A DNA stretch of 4,446 nt from a virus. Lineage: Duplodnaviria; Heunggongvirae; Uroviricota; Caudoviricetes. The translations under genes and the position numbers were made by a program. The notes beneath the pieces were generated by a model. The model was not told the origin of the DNA and searched no databases. It saw only the letters and a program-made list of their open reading frames with translations. How positions within the stretch are numbered: position 1 is the first letter of the stretch; the number at the start of each line of letters is the position of its first letter. Location of the stretch: IMG/VR virus record IMGVR_UViG_2802429246_000012. The stretch is one strand, 5' to 3'. Below are positions 1 through 4,446 of the stretch, piece by piece.

Positions 1-192
1 ATGTTCGCGCTGGTACTTTTTGTTTGCTATCTGGACGCTGGTTGTGAAGATATTGTGGTTGATGTCTACAATACGGAACAGCAGTGCCTCTACTCAATGG
101 ACGATCAACGGATCCGCCACGGTGGCTGTTTTCCCGTTGAAGATTTCATTGATGGGTTCTGGCGGCCTGCGCAAGATTACAGTGACTTTTAA
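1..192 (+). CDS. yebW: Small uncharacterized protein, YebW-like (63 aa, 4 Cys)
   Basis: 63-codon ORF with TAA stop at 190-192, directly abutting the stop of the convergent phosphatase gene. From memory, E. coli K-12 has a 63-aa YebW next to pphA with a similar MFALVLFVCYLD start; this is recalled, not searched. The start sits at the window edge, so no RBS or promoter can be inspected. Confidence 0.5.
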   Translation: MFALVLFVCYLDAGCEDIVVDVYNTEQQCLYSMDDQRIRHGGCFPVEDFIDGFWRPAQDYSDF

Positions 193-849
193 TTACTGGA
201 GTCGTTCCAACGTGAGTGTTCCACCAAAGACCGCGCCGGTATCAATATAATGCAAGTTACCGATATCTACGCGATGACGTAATGGCGTATGACCAAACCA
301 GAAATGATCAGCGCCGGTAATTCCCTGCCCTTTTCGGCCTTCACGCAATCGCGAGCGACTCCACAACACCTGATGCAGATCGACTTCCTTATGCCACTCA
401 TAAATATCATTGGGGTAATCCGCATGGGCGATGACATGCAGTCCGCTACTACAGCTTAATTCAATTATCCACGGCAAAGACCCGCACTTTTCCAGCGCCC
501 TTCTCGCTTGCTCACGTTGGTGCTCTGTCAGTGCGGCAAACCAGTCGCCACCATTCATAAACCACAAAGACATCTGCTGCGATGCCAGCGCATCCATCGC
601 CATCTGCTCATGATTGCCTCTTACCGCCCTGACCCAGCGTTGATCCAGTAATTGCAGGCAACGCAAACTCTCCGGGCCACGATCGATAACGTCACCAACC
701 GAGATTAACAAGTCTTGCCACGGGTCAAACCGGCAGAACCATAATTTCTCTCGCAGTTGCGCCAGGCAGCCATGAATATCACCCACCAGCCAAATATGTC
801 GCCACTGACTACCATCAATTCTCTGATAGATGTGGCCTGCCTGTTTCAT
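193..849 (-). CDS. pphA: Serine/threonine protein phosphatase, PPP/calcineurin-like metallophosphatase family (PrpA/PrpB, lambda PPase-like), 218 aa
   Basis: The translation carries the three PPP signature motifs in order: GDIHG, GDVIDRG and GNHE, plus downstream HADYP and FGHTP. Length and the MKQAGHIYQRI start match my memory of E. coli PrpA. I chose the ATG at 849 because an AAGGAA Shine-Dalgarno (853-858) precedes it; the in-frame ATG at 870 has none. The symbol rests on synteny with the yebW-like ORF; PrpB or a phage-borne PPase is not excluded. Confidence 0.85.
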   Translation of the reverse strand: MKQAGHIYQRIDGSQWRHIWLVGDIHGCLAQLREKLWFCRFDPWQDLLISVGDVIDRGPESLRCLQLLDQRWVRAVRGNHEQMAMDALASQQMSLWFMNGGDWFAALTEHQREQARRALEKCGSLPWIIELSCSSGLHVIAHADYPNDIYEWHKEVDLHQVLWSRSRLREGRKGQGITGADHFWFGHTPLRHRVDIGNLHYIDTGAVFGGTLTLERLQ

Positions 850-852
850 CAA

Positions 853-858
853 TTCCTT
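853..858 (-). promoter_or_regulatory. Shine-Dalgarno (AAGGAA) for the phosphatase start at 849
   Basis: Minus-strand sequence reads GGGAGTAAGGAATTG ATG AAA CAG; the purine-rich block lies a few nt upstream of the second in-frame ATG. Confidence 0.5.
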
Positions 859-870
859 ACTCCCGCGCAT

Positions 871-1246
871 AAGATCACATTATTTTAACAAAAATGTTAA
901 AAAAGCCTGGACTGAAGCAGTAGAGTGTGTGTTATGGTTGATTGTGAAGTCAGTGAGGGAAAAGCAGTAATGCCATTATCAAACTGGCTTTATAGATAAA
1001 AAGAGACCGAACACGATTCCTGTTTTCGTCAACAAACAAGAAACCCTTTTTAAATTAATGTGTTAAACAAAATCACGCTCATCTTTTAATCCCAAACACG
1101 TACCATTGCATATTAATGCATTCAATTAGTTACCATTTTTTTCGAGTTTTTTAGAGAAAATTTCGGGACTATTTCAGACCAATCCAGGCAGAAATAAGCA
1201 ATCTATGAGTTGAATAATTTCTCAACAATTATGTAAGATTATTTCC
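871..1246 (-). promoter_or_regulatory. AT-rich non-coding spacer: presumed phosphatase promoter region and phage/chromosome junction (promoter not pinpointed)
   Basis: No ORF of 60 aa or more on either strand. Hand counts of 60-bp blocks between 901 and 1200 give roughly 28-45% GC, visibly lower than the flanking coding DNA. Several weak sigma70-like hexamers are present (for example TTGACG and TAAAAT on the minus strand) but none with convincing spacing. Confidence 0.4.
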
Positions 1247-1290
1247 GGCTGACTTTCATTCAGTTTCGCATTATCGAACGTACGTCAGCC

Positions 1291-1327
1291 AGCTGCGGCA
1301 CGTTCTTGCATACGACGTGCCGCAGCT
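1291..1327. terminator. Perfect 12-bp inverted repeat (AGCTGCGGCACG / CGTGCCGCAGCT) with 13-nt loop; putative terminator or RNA-stabilising stem-loop at the 3' end of the tail-fiber operon
   Basis: The repeat is seen directly in the sequence and starts 4 nt beyond the chaperone stop codon (1332-1334). There is no U-tract on the minus-strand transcript; on the plus strand it is followed by TCTGTTATT. It may therefore act bidirectionally or simply protect the 3' end. Confidence 0.4.
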
Positions 1328-1331
1328 TCTG

Positions 1332-1904
1332 TTATTCCACGATAAAATTCCTAACCGAATTCAAATCCTCCAGACTATTCAGTTCATCCTTCATCTCACG
1401 CTGGCGACGATATATCTCGTCATTGCGATCGACCTGTGCCTGCGCCATTGCAGTAAGCAGCTCATCCAGTTTCTGCATCGACAGTTTCACCTGCTGGTTT
1501 TCCGCATCGCCCCATACCATGGTTTTTCGCGCTGTGTCAGACTTTGATGCCATTACTGCCGGATAAAGACGAGCCATTGAGTCGGGGCCAGCATTCCAGG
1601 TACGACCGTTCCATTCGAACGTGAACGGCAGTGCTTCCTGTTCTGTTCGCCACGCCTCGATTTCCCGCTTTTTGGCATCTTTTGCCGCTGCGATAAGTTC
1701 AGGCGTGACTGTAAACGGGGCGATTTCACCCCATTTGCCGCTCTGTAACTCTTCCCAGATGCGCTGGCCTGTCGGGGCGCTATCGTCCTGCATGGCGGTA
1801 TACGGGACGAATTCCCTTTCACCTTCAAATAGCACCTCGCAGTCAACCGCACCATTTTCGAGATAATGCGCGTTTCTGATGCCTTTTACCGCTCTGATTT
1901 TCAT
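1332..1904 (-). CDS. Putative tail fiber assembly/chaperone protein (190 aa), non-canonical type
   Basis: The ATG lies 14 bp downstream of the tail fiber stop and is preceded by a strong GAGGAAA Shine-Dalgarno, the classic position of a fiber chaperone after its fiber gene. The protein lacks the C-terminal IEWP motif seen in the other Tfa here; it has a W-rich middle (EAWRTEQEALPFTFEWNGRTWNAGPDS) and a predicted helical C-terminus. Being a real gene is likely; the function is inferred from context. Confidence 0.55.
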   Translation of the reverse strand: MKIRAVKGIRNAHYLENGAVDCEVLFEGEREFVPYTAMQDDSAPTGQRIWEELQSGKWGEIAPFTVTPELIAAAKDAKKREIEAWRTEQEALPFTFEWNGRTWNAGPDSMARLYPAVMASKSDTARKTMVWGDAENQQVKLSMQKLDELLTAMAQAQVDRNDEIYRRQREMKDELNSLEDLNSVRNFIVE

Positions 1905-1918: not shown

Positions 1919-3874
1919 TTACTCGATGCGCACAAACAGGCAGATACGACCGCTTGTTCCGTAAGAGTCCCTGACCCCGGATAACGCCATATAACGCCCC
2001 GGGAAAGTGTACCCTGTAGCTCCTGCACTCGGTGTGGAACCGTAGGAGCCAGCCCCCGCAGAAGATATTGTGCACGAAAGATTAACTCCGCCCAGTTGTG
2101 ACCCTGGCACCACATCACCCAGGCCAATTTTGATTTCTTTATCCCCGGAAGTTGTTCCGCGATAAACAGCAAGCACCGGAACACCCACTGCCGGGTATTT
2201 GAAATATGAGCCTGAGCCTGCCGTTCGGGACAGCAGGAACGCCAGCGAATCGCCGTCGTAAATGATGGGGCTTACTGTTGCATTCCAGTTGTTTCCACTC
2301 CAGCGGTAAGTCAGGCGATGAATGCTGTGCTCACCTTCGTAATACTGGTTAAAACACAGCAGCATTTTGAATTTACGCGTTGTGTCCGATTCATCGTTAT
2401 CAAAGGGCGACCACATCACATCAATGATGCCGTTAAATTTTGTGGTGCCTGCCAGTAGTGTGGAAGAGTCCGCAATACTGACCGCATAACGCCCCGGGGT
2501 GGCCTCTTTCAGCCATTCAGCAAAATCGGCCTGTCCGTCAAACGCCAGAGCGTCGGTGCTGGCAAATGCCTGACCGAATCCGTACATGCCGGACAGTGCC
2601 AGCCTGCCCGGTGTGCGGTCGCGGATATCGCTCTGGGGCTCCATCGTCGCAGCCGTTTTCAGACCAAGATATTCCAGCACCTCATTTTTAGAATTCTGAC
2701 CAATTAACACCCGACCGACCGCAGTCAGATTTGCCAGCGCCATGACGTTTTTATCACTGAAATAAGGCAACTTATTACCGGCAGTAACCAGTCCTGATAA
2801 TGACGTCAGTATTTCATTAAGCGGCTGTTTACCTGCCAGGGCGTTAGTGACCGTTGTTGCAAAGTTCGGGTCATTACCCAGCGCCGCTGCCAGCTCGTTC
2901 AGTGTGTCCAGTGTTTCCGGGGACGAGTCAACCAGCGCGGCGAGCAGTTTGCGAACAAATGCCGCGTTCGCGGTTTCCAGACCGACTGCATCGTCCGGTG
3001 GGGTTGGTGTGGTTGGCGTACCTGTGAACGCCGGGCTGTCCAGTGGCGCTTTTGTTTTCGTCTCGTCCATGACGGTTTTGACAGCCTTTGGCGTGGCTGC
3101 CAGTTCCTCGCTGTCGTTGTCTGTATCACTACAGAGTTGCACCAGACCTTTTTGCGTCGTGCTGGCGTTGGTTCCTTTCAGGTCATCGACTATCCGTTGC
3201 GCCTCGTCCCTGTGCTGTTTCGCGTTCTGCTCGCTTTTTGCAGCCGCTTCGGCGCTGGCTTTTGCCTCGCCAGTCAGCGTTGCGGCTTCGTCGAGTTTAT
3301 CGACCGCTTTCTGGACTATCTTATCGGCATCTTTGACCGCCTGTTCTGCCCGGGCGGCATCCTGTGTGGCAGATGATGCCAGCTGTGCCACCTGCTTTTT
3401 ATCTTCGGCAACGGCTTCTGCATTCTGCTGTACGTTATCCGCCAGCGTCTGACAGTCTTCCTTTATCTTCTGCGCATCAGCGACATGTTGCCCGGCCTGG
3501 CGTTCGCTTTCCGCTGCTGCTTCCGCGCTCTGCTGCGCCTGCGCCACCATTTCCTCGAAGCGTTTCACCACGTCGGGTTTGAGGTCGCCTTCATCAAGGG
3601 CAGTCAGAAAGTCGTTCAGCGTGCCGGGCCTGGAGTCGTCGTATACAGCAATGTCGCCAACACAGTACTCGTCGCGCCAGTCCTGCTTCAGATATACGCA
3701 ATATTTTCCGGTCTGCGCCTTAAAACAGTACTCGCCACAGTTTCCTGTCACCACGTCGGCAACTGTGCGCATCACCACTTCTGAGGTGTTTACCCGGGAT
3801 TTCAGAATTATGTGGCATCCGGACATGGGGATGCCTGCGCCATCAATCAGCGCACCTGATATCACTACAGACAT
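1919..3874 (-). CDS. Side tail fiber protein (lambda Stf / Rac StfR-like), 651 aa, complete
   Basis: The N-terminal ~110 aa (3545-3874; MSVVISGALIDGAGIP ... VYDDSRPGTLNDFL) matches the prophage tail-fibre N-terminal domain as I recall it from StfR. Then come an Ala/Gln/Glu-rich coiled-coil shaft (about 3155-3544), the collar motif KGLVQLCSD...ELAATPKAVK (3077-3151) and the widely conserved fiber segment ANAAFVRKLLAALVDSSPETLDTLNELAAALGNDPNFATTVTNALAGKQP ... LEYLGLK (2657-2971). The last ~245 aa (1922-2656) are a distinct distal tip. Confidence 0.9.
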   Translation of the reverse strand: MSVVISGALIDGAGIPMSGCHIILKSRVNTSEVVMRTVADVVTGNCGEYCFKAQTGKYCVYLKQDWRDEYCVGDIAVYDDSRPGTLNDFLTALDEGDLKPDVVKRFEEMVAQAQQSAEAAAESERQAGQHVADAQKIKEDCQTLADNVQQNAEAVAEDKKQVAQLASSATQDAARAEQAVKDADKIVQKAVDKLDEAATLTGEAKASAEAAAKSEQNAKQHRDEAQRIVDDLKGTNASTTQKGLVQLCSDTDNDSEELAATPKAVKTVMDETKTKAPLDSPAFTGTPTTPTPPDDAVGLETANAAFVRKLLAALVDSSPETLDTLNELAAALGNDPNFATTVTNALAGKQPLNEILTSLSGLVTAGNKLPYFSDKNVMALANLTAVGRVLIGQNSKNEVLEYLGLKTAATMEPQSDIRDRTPGRLALSGMYGFGQAFASTDALAFDGQADFAEWLKEATPGRYAVSIADSSTLLAGTTKFNGIIDVMWSPFDNDESDTTRKFKMLLCFNQYYEGEHSIHRLTYRWSGNNWNATVSPIIYDGDSLAFLLSRTAGSGSYFKYPAVGVPVLAVYRGTTSGDKEIKIGLGDVVPGSQLGGVNLSCTISSAGAGSYGSTPSAGATGYTFPGRYMALSGVRDSYGTSGRICLFVRIE

Positions 3875-3897
3875 AGTTTTTCTCGCGATAAATTAAA

Positions 3898-4446
3898 TCA
3901 GGAAGAGGCTTCCGGAGAGACGGGCCATTCAATGGCGTTATATGAGGTTTTATCAGTGATAATGTTGAAATCCATCGCCTGCAGCGATTTCGCGTAAATG
4001 CGGTACGCTTTCAGTTTTTCCCTGTCTTCGTCGCTGATTAATCCCAGCAGCAGGTCTTTTTCCCATTCGCTGGTCATGATGCTGACCCGTTGTGACAGGG
4101 CATCGCGCTCATCTTCCGCTTTAAGTTTGTAGTCGAAAACAAATTCATCATTGCGGTAGAACCAGTATCCCGACGCCTCAATGCGACGATTAGCGGTAAT
4201 ATCCGGCAACTCAATCACACTTTTATTTTCCGGGCAGATTGAGGTGATGTCTTTTCCAACCCAGACCACTTCGCCAGTTTCAACATAAATAACTTTCAGA
4301 GTGTCTGGCTGAAATTTTTCCTGGGCTTCGTGCCATTCCTGACCATCATCGGAGAACAGCCACAATAAAAATTTATGCTGTCGCGCCAGCTGGTATTGCT
4401 CAATTGTTTTAGGGTTTTGTACCGTAAGATTTTTTAAGTGCATCAT
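3898..4446 (-). CDS. Tail fiber assembly protein (Tfa, lambda Tfa / e14 TfaE-like), 182 aa
   Basis: The MMHLKNL start and the C-terminal stretch DREKLKAYRIYAKSLQAMD...AIEWPVSPE resemble the conserved C-terminus of lambda Tfa (...[27 protein letters not shown]) as I recall it. The ATG is at the window edge, so the upstream context and any upstream in-frame extension cannot be seen. The stop lies 23 bp before the fiber ATG. Confidence 0.85.
   Translation of the reverse strand: MMHLKNLTVQNPKTIEQYQLARQHKFLLWLFSDDGQEWHEAQEKFQPDTLKVIYVETGEVVWVGKDITSICPENKSVIELPDITANRRIEASGYWFYRNDEFVFDYKLKAEDERDALSQRVSIMTSEWEKDLLLGLISDEDREKLKAYRIYAKSLQAMDFNIITDKTSYNAIEWPVSPEASS

Follow-up and report, generated by a model that had tools for sequence, protein, structure and literature searches.

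Two tail-fiber genes in tandem, each followed by a putative chaperone gene, at the attR end of an enterobacterial prophage

Results

Gene order in the window

The stretch analysed here (the window) is 4,446 nt of a caudoviricete phage, IMG/VR record IMGVR_UViG_2802429246_000012, and our subject is the group of tail-fiber genes that it carries. The open reading frame (ORF) map shows three phage ORFs, all intact and all on the minus strand. Read along that strand, an ORF of 182 residues is followed after 23 bp by one of 651 residues and this, after 14 bp, by one of 190 residues; an AT-rich gap and the chromosomal gene pphA come next (Table 1). The products are a Tfa protein, a full-length fiber (here called F2) and a protein with a DUF4376 domain. 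A further fiber gene (F1) precedes Tfa, beyond the right edge of the window. A first-pass annotation made from the sequence had put a Tfa gene 23 bp ahead of a full-length fiber gene; the ORF map agrees with its coordinates, and the PF02413 and PF08400 matches agree with its identification of the two products.

Table 1. Features of the window with position, strand and basis of assignment
Feature	Position	Strand	Basis
Tfa, 182 residues	3898..4446	-	PF02413, phrog_136, Mu TfaU match
Spacer between Tfa and F2, 23 bp	3875..3897	-	Direct sequence reading; weak GAGA Shine-Dalgarno-like element
F2 fiber, 651 residues	1919..3874	-	PF08400 and PF03406; phrog_2636 end to end
F2 residues 1-134: Ig-like collar-type anchor (~1-93) and start of coiled coil	3473..3874	-	PF08400
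F2 Phage_fiber_2 repeat, residues 238-277	3044-3163	-	PF03406
F2 variable C-terminal receptor-binding region, residues 401-651	1922-2674	-	
DUF4376 protein, 190 residues	1332..1904	-	PF14301, phrog_1141
GC-rich stem-loop	1290..1328	-	Fold compared with shuffles
attR core (prophage/chromosome junction)	998..1028	no strand	Equals 3'-terminal 31 nt of sdsR
pphA, chromosomal Ser/Thr phosphatase, outside the prophage	193..849	-	PF00149; 218-residue gene in source contig; K-12 yebV-yebW-pphA synteny
yebW (DUF1482), chromosomal	1..192	+	PF07358 at 120 bits; synteny

The upstream fiber F1 and its Tfa

In the profile search the 182-residue protein matches PF02413 (Caudo_TAP) with 75.3 bits against a cut-off of 22.1. 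Its residues 1-159 match TfaU of phage Mu (PDB: 5yvq_B, E = 9e-33), and it is 41-43% identical to U' of Mu, D108 and P1. These matches assign it to the Mu U/P1 U'/P2 G family, and it is predicted to be the chaperone of F1. The source contig (PTSO01000009.1, assembly GCA_002965265.1), the only contig on record with the exact F2 protein, runs just 76 bp beyond the right edge of the window and ends inside F1. These 76 bp hold the last 23 codons of a fiber ORF, MDWANARPVQVLINGVWRNVASL followed by a stop codon 2 nt ahead of the Tfa ATG. A 2.6-kb contig of a sibling assembly (locus L007), 100% identical over the shared 2428 bp, extends F1 to 96 codons. Both fragments are ~95% identical to the C-terminus of a 491-residue ‘phage tail protein’ encoded upstream of Tfa in Escherichia coli HNSQ2209, and in every close relative a full-length fiber lies upstream of Tfa. 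The fiber gene that had been predicted, and proposed as a check, upstream of position 4446 has thus been located: its 3' end in the source contig, 96 codons of it in the sibling and its full-length counterpart in relatives. By sequence, F1 has a fiber end of the Mu S/P2 H type, and the Tfa gene lies directly downstream of it, as is the case for Caudo_TAP assembly proteins. Since it follows its own fiber, Tfa is in its usual place, an ordinary partner whose fiber gene is truncated by the contig break. The sibling contig itself breaks in F1 and in the C-terminus of F2, and fiber repeats in other prophages may have caused the contig breaks by collapsing short-read assembly.

The second fiber F2 has a conserved collar-type anchor

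F2 is built of an N-terminal anchor, a coiled coil rich in Ala, Glu and Gln (residues ~100-235), a Phage_fiber_2 repeat, a shaft and a variable C-terminal end. PF08400 (phage_tail_N) covers residues 1-134 with 208 bits, and PF03406 covers residues 238-277. The N-terminus had been described as a baseplate-attachment domain. It is rather of the collar-forming type of lambda Stf: residues 1-93 match gpStfN of Ur-lambda (PDB: 9e7m, E = 7e-17) and residues 1-199 match the collar spike gp40 of the Vibrio myophage XM1 (PDB: 7kjk, E = 8e-10). Lambda gpStfN encircles the tail tube at the gpV/gpM junction as a collar of twelve copies (PMC12617516), and in XM1 the immunoglobulin-like (Ig-like) N-terminal domain and coiled coil of gp40 fix six trimers to the neck of this contractile phage (PMC10457771). 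On these matches the N-terminus of F2 is better termed a collar-type anchor than a baseplate-attachment domain.

The anchors of the window, HNSQ2209 and the phages phiP27, Rac-SA53 and vB_Apl-pPE4 (hereafter pPE4) share 97-99% identity. The ratio of non-synonymous to synonymous substitution rates (dN/dS) is 0.02-0.07 at dS 0.13-0.27 (values that leave out locus L020, where the ORF start is offset), and the anchor is under purifying selection. So low a ratio together with appreciable synonymous divergence indicates function. With the Stf N-termini of siphoviruses (lambda, Stx phages, Seuratviruses) the anchor shares only 31-46% identity, and it forms a separate Stf-like subfamily. Both anchor types occur in one lambda-like locus (L021): the fiber after Lom, a pseudogene, has a lambda-type anchor (91% identical to lambda), and a second fiber, after a Tfa remnant, has an F2-type anchor, 87% identical to that of the window and 43% to that of lambda.

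The C-terminal 250 residues of F2, its receptor-binding end, are ~30% identical to their counterparts in phiP27, Rac-SA53, pPE4 and HNSQ2209. E. coli ETEC4085, whose prophage occupies the same sdsR/pphA site, encodes an F2 of 1044 residues with the same receptor-binding type as the window, its distal 380 residues being 75% identical. This fiber (locus L106, 10905-14039) has three tandem modules of the receptor-binding type (residues ~421-503, 529-609 and 785-1044) where F2 of the window has one, a pattern suggestive of distal modules duplicated or stacked within the protein.

The DUF4376 protein as putative helper of F2

The gene that follows F2 is preceded by a good Shine-Dalgarno element (GAGGA), 7 nt ahead of its start codon. 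Its product matches PF14301 (58 bits, cut-off 25) and phrog_1141. The first-pass annotation had credited F2 with a downstream chaperone of its own; a probable helper gene does lie directly 3' of F2, but it encodes a DUF4376 protein and not a Tfa of the Caudo_TAP family. Distant DUF4376 proteins have been found experimentally to be needed as fiber chaperones (PMC7289586, PMC10579305, PMC7882524). These proteins, Alteromonas phage V22 gp27, A5 gp9 and the partner of the H fiber in Campylobacter CJIE1, resemble the protein described here in having a DUF4376 C-terminal domain and a gene directly 3' of that for the fiber; they differ in being distant, and for the enterobacterial DUF4376 proteins the function is predicted. 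The DUF4376 protein of the window is a probable dedicated chaperone of F2, and its predicted structure has a predicted local distance difference test (pLDDT) score of 85. A proposal that DUF4376 is the C-terminal domain of Mu Tfa (PMC7882524) was not reproduced by profile or fold comparison.

Two side observations concern this family. The profile phrog_11571 (223 positions) matches Tfa residues 27-114 with its N-terminus and DUF4376 residues 55-184 with its C-terminus, which points to the existence of natural hybrids that join a Tfa N-domain to a DUF4376 C-domain. At the uspF/Rac site of two loci (L017 and L018) an intact F2 of 608 residues is followed by a DUF4376 remnant of 37 codons (3415-3525 in each); this F2 either folds without the helper or is a defunct fiber.

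Which chaperone serves which fiber

Co-variation was measured as Spearman rho across 14 loci. The last 100 residues of F1 co-vary with the N-terminal half of Tfa (rho = 0.63), with values of ~0 against F2 or DUF4376, and the last 200 residues of F2 co-vary with the N-terminal 65 residues of DUF4376 (rho = 0.69). In ETEC4085, which shares the receptor-binding type of the window, DUF4376 is 97% identical; where the F2 C-termini are only ~30% identical, the N-terminal 65 residues of DUF4376 are 60-72% identical. The pairings F1-Tfa and F2-DUF4376 fit these values. Because the co-varying segments are adjacent and physically linked, the co-variation is confounded and is supportive of the pairings rather than decisive.

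The upstream Tfa might instead serve F2, alone or with DUF4376, in which case the order Tfa before fiber would itself be functional. The conserved adjacency of the two genes, with its 23-bp gap, would fit such a role, and fibers with two chaperones have a precedent in T4 gp37, which needs both gp38 and gp57A. Tfa however co-varies with the C-terminus of F1 (rho = 0.54-0.63) and not with that of F2 (rho = 0.02-0.08). In Rac-SA53 and locus L020, moreover, Tfa proteins of 25-44% identity stand beside anchors of 94-97% identity and various F2 ends, and the F2-DUF4376 pair also occurs after gpD with no adjacent Tfa. We regard service of Tfa to F2 as highly improbable and retain the pairings F1-Tfa and F2-DUF4376.

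The order recurs on several tail types

The order F1-Tfa-F2-DUF4376-attachment site (att) is found in the Stx2e phage phiP27 (L54-L57), in Rac-SA53 (tail1-tail4) and in pPE4 (gp67-70). It recurs at the pphA site in two E. coli strains, HNSQ2209 and ETEC4085, where genes for the tail sheath, baseplate hub and wedge lie upstream. The phiP27 genome (AJ298298) has the same succession of fiber, Tfa, fiber with Stf N-terminus, DUF4376 and att, with 94.5% identity in Tfa, 99% in the F2 anchor and 78% in DUF4376; it differs in that L57, at the position of DUF4376, is annotated as ‘unknown’. Rac-SA53 differs in being integrated next to uspF, the window prophage lying at sdsR, and all three phages differ from the window in the receptor-binding end of F2 and in the host, which for the window appears to be a non-coli Escherichia.

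A contig scan seeded with exact Tfa peptides gave 6 loci; the counts were taken from a junction-spanning BLAST and from IMG/VR. By DNA BLAST across the junction, Tfa is joined to F2 in 88 of 5426 complete E. coli genomes. A chimeric protein query found the junction among 50,697 phage records in phiP27, Rac-SA53 and pPE4 only. The IMG/VR sample comprised 80 contigs with an F2-type anchor. A full Tfa ends <= 120 bp upstream of F2 in 67 of these and a partial Tfa in 4; in another 5, F2 comes after the gpD gene of a P2-like tail. DUF4376 lies directly downstream of F2 in 51 of the 80, many of the remaining contigs being cut by the contig end. Classified by the genes within 10 kb upstream, the tails are of the Rac-SA53 type (contractile, with tail sheath, baseplate hub and wedge genes) in 40 contigs, of the Mu/phiP27 type in 12, of the P2 type in 12, lambda-like in 4 and unclassified in 12. 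The F2 module is found on at least three unrelated types of contractile tail, and the order F1-Tfa-F2-DUF4376-att is the rule for the F2 subfamily. The first-pass annotation had offered two complete fiber sets and a recombinational mosaic as alternatives; each holds in part, the two-set layout being conserved while receptor-binding ends and tail types are swapped among relatives.

Some related loci are organized differently. In a P2-like prophage of E. coli PSS-15 (locus L024, 2020-5400) a fiber of the F2 type (798 residues) and a DUF4376 gene follow gpD directly, with a DUF1353 gene and a second DUF4376 remnant beyond the pair. In E. coli VL40 (locus L019, 479-3349) a type III secretion system effector gene, ipaHb, lies downstream of F2-DUF4376. 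E. albertii NBRC 107761 (locus L014, 8298-11416) has a different kind of tandem: a P2-type fiber (566 residues, PF12571 N-terminus) with Tfa, and then, in place of the Stf-type fiber, a second protein of 285 residues that also has a PF12571 N-terminal domain. The phage pPE4 (PP818812.1) was deposited as a phage of Actinobacillus pleuropneumoniae. Its matched segments have ~91% DNA identity to the window, its baseplate proteins share 99% identity with those of E. coli prophages and its attP core agrees with the sdsR 3' end of enterobacteria. This host attribution looks doubtful.

The operon end and the attachment site

A promoter scan found no promoter-like site in the whole window. With gaps of 14-23 bp between the genes, this suggests a single late transcript. 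A small hairpin at 3913-3901 is within chance; 4 terminator-like sites were found against 5.1 expected. After the DUF4376 stop codon, at the end of the late operon, lies a stem-loop without a U-tract: 1270-1340(-) folds at -31.1 kcal/mol (z = -4.5), and 0 of 200 shuffles were as stable. Region 1290-1349 (-) gives a sub-threshold match to Rfam CssrB (32 bits, gathering score 76); no match above threshold to Rfam and no tRNA gene were found in the window. The hairpin is probably a terminator or stabiliser of the operon end rather than a small RNA.

Homology to E. coli K-12 extends from yebW through pphA and ends at position 1028. The att core equals the 3'-terminal 31 nt (terminator) of K-12 sdsR (ryeB), at 3105-3135 of locus L008, in 30 of 31 bases; sdsR lies inside ryeA. 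To the left of the core the window aligns with K-12 and to the right with the attP region of pPE4. Salmonella PhiW104 has the same attachment site, sdsR/ryeB (PMC7380047). Integration took place in the 3' end of sdsR, adjoining pphA, and the window is the attR-proximal end of the late operon of the prophage. The 9-kb chromosomal flank is 89.2% identical to E. coli HNSQ2209, and for this reason the host is taken to be a non-coli Escherichia with a divergence like that of E. albertii. Within this flank (source contig 3600-12604) the yebW-pphA segment (window 1-962) is only 80.7% identical to K-12, and the genes adjoining the integration site may be unusually diverged.

Discussion

A late operon that ends in two probable fiber-chaperone sets

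We hold with good confidence that the locus is one late operon ending in two independent, co-expressed fiber-chaperone sets. Set 1 would comprise the primary fiber F1 and the Mu U-type Tfa, and set 2 the accessory fiber F2, with its own Ig-like collar anchor and coiled coil, and the DUF4376 chaperone; F1, Tfa, F2 and DUF4376 would be transcribed as one unit. We infer that DUF4376 folds F2 and that both fibers are assembled on the virion. Since there is no DNA inversion, the same virion would carry both fibers at once and would have two receptor specificities. Such dual specificity may widen the host range, or may serve a two-step adsorption like that of lambda with Stf and J.

F1 is probably attached to the baseplate, because in relatives its gene directly follows those of the baseplate wedge. 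For F2 a position at the neck or collar, and not on the baseplate, is a tentative placement, taken by analogy from the contractile phage XM1, to which we give nearly but not quite even weight. XM1 gp40 resembles F2 in its Ig-like N-terminal domain and ~100-residue coiled coil and in being a second receptor-binding structure (PMC10457771); it differs in that its distal part is a tailspike and not a fiber, and neck attachment has been shown for XM1 only. By tblastx, the only regions common to phiP27 and pPE4 are their lysis genes and the fiber module starting at mid-F1. No head, neck or tail protein common to the two was detected, and therefore the F2 anchor, 99% conserved between them, has no obvious conserved docking partner. 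The anchor might form a self-assembling ring with loose contacts, dock on the F1 shaft or on Tfa, or not be incorporated at all.

Docking on the F1 shaft, on Tfa retained at its tip or at the baseplate periphery would make F2 a working part of a branched or doubled baseplate fiber. The comparison of phiP27 with pPE4 speaks for it, since the C-terminal two-thirds of F1, Tfa, F2 and DUF4376 are the sole virion components that these phages share, and so does the position of F2 directly after Tfa in 67-71 of the 80 IMG/VR loci; branched fibers are known in T5-like phages (DT57C LtfAB, as cited in PMC12617516). Yet F2 follows a P2-like gpD with no adjacent Tfa in 5 of the 80 loci and in PSS-15, Tfa varies from 25% to 100% identity where the anchor keeps 94-99%, and the partners of both solved anchor homologues are ring-shaped proteins of the tube or neck and not fibers (PMC12617516, PMC10457771). 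On this balance such docking seems unlikely.

Besides the missing docking partner and the linkage that confounds the co-variation, several points weigh against two working sets. The full F1 and the tail genes of the source prophage lie beyond the end of the contig and are deduced from relatives. Among the fold matches of the DUF4376 model there was neither Mu TfaU nor a solved chaperone, beyond weak prefoldin-like hits, and the profile comparison of DUF4376 with Caudo_TAP was negative; because of these two results the chaperone role rests on family, position and co-variation and not on fold. Finally, a comparison with related prophages, proposed earlier as a way to see whether either cassette is absent elsewhere, found the order conserved in most, but set 2 decayed in some: only a remnant of DUF4376 is left in L017 and L018, F2 is truncated in L025 and L015 has lost the set altogether.

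Such frequent decay would be expected if set 2 were a recombination scar or hitch-hiking cargo, captured via the conserved 3' end of Tfa and absent from the virion. Its constant place at the outermost end of the prophage, a region in which morons accumulate, its presence on unrelated tail types (including a lambda-like one, after a decayed lambda-type stf-tfa pair) and its occurrence in phiP27 and pPE4 with no visible common docking partner fit such an origin as well. Against it, the ORFs are intact in the three deposited phage genomes and in most of the loci examined, and the dN/dS of the anchor is that of a sequence under constraint. Set 2 also lies within the late operon, with gaps of 14-23 bp and no promoter-like site of its own, and the receptor-binding end of F2 and the N-terminus of DUF4376 are exchanged together, as in working fiber-chaperone pairs. 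We consider a scar or cargo quite improbable and keep to two functional sets.

Comparison with known systems

F2 resembles Stf of Ur-lambda in its Ig-like collar domain (~45% identity), coiled coil and gp37-like shaft, and in being additional to another receptor-binding protein (PMC12617516). In lambda, by contrast, Stf comes first after J-lom and is the sole fiber, the tail is non-contractile and the chaperone is a Caudo_TAP Tfa; F2 is a second fiber, has relatives with contractile tails and goes with a DUF4376 chaperone. F2 thus has the PF08400 collar domain of a lambda-type Stf and lacks its J-lom, non-contractile and Tfa context, as judged on relatives, from which the tail of the source prophage is deduced.

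The invertible fiber segments of Mu (G, S-U/U'-S'), P1 (C) and e14 (P, pin) are alike in having a Tfa homologous to Mu U/U', a fiber end of the Mu S/P2 H type and two specificities. An inverted layout of the Gin/Pin/Cin kind had already been discounted in the first-pass annotation, rightly so for the window, whose genes share one strand and include no invertase; no gene stands in inverted orientation, and such inverted repeats as occur are short and imperfect, with no crossover repeats; an invertible fiber segment is rejected there. An invertase gene, suggested as something to look for, is absent from the window and from most relatives, the only exception among those examined being E. coli VL40, where a pinE pseudogene with an internal stop lies ~3 kb away, downstream of F2-DUF4376. 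F1 and F2 are both complete and have different anchors, and for this reason would be expressed together rather than alternately.

Implications

Annotated phage genomes (phiP27, Rac-SA53) already contain the tandem two-fiber layout, and it is well known that a phage may have two receptor-binding proteins; for the fibers of Rac-SA53 and pPE4 we found nothing relevant in the literature. We did not find stated in the literature searched that an Stf-like fiber of the F2 type with DUF4376 is a systematic second fiber on several unrelated contractile tails.

One could go further and regard F2 and DUF4376 as a plug-in accessory-fiber cassette that is independent of tail type. It would spread among contractile phages (Rac-SA53, Mu/phiP27 and P2 types), and sometimes lambda-like ones, by recombination at the 3' end of Tfa or at the operon end, and its anchor would self-assemble as a ring at the neck or tail with no sequence-specific partners. 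We think this extension possible but doubtful. If it were true, the cassette would be a portable second receptor specificity for any tail, and an anchor that docks independently of tail type would be a convenient handle for retargeting.

For the window itself the outcome is mainly a corrected annotation, that of a prophage which ends in two receptor-binding sets. More widely, the comparisons identify a distinct subfamily of Stf-like anchors; in enterobacterial prophages with contractile tails it almost always belongs to the second fiber, and it goes together with DUF4376. This may be of use in predicting the host range of prophages, in annotating DUF4376 proteins and in engineering phages or tailocins with an added specificity.

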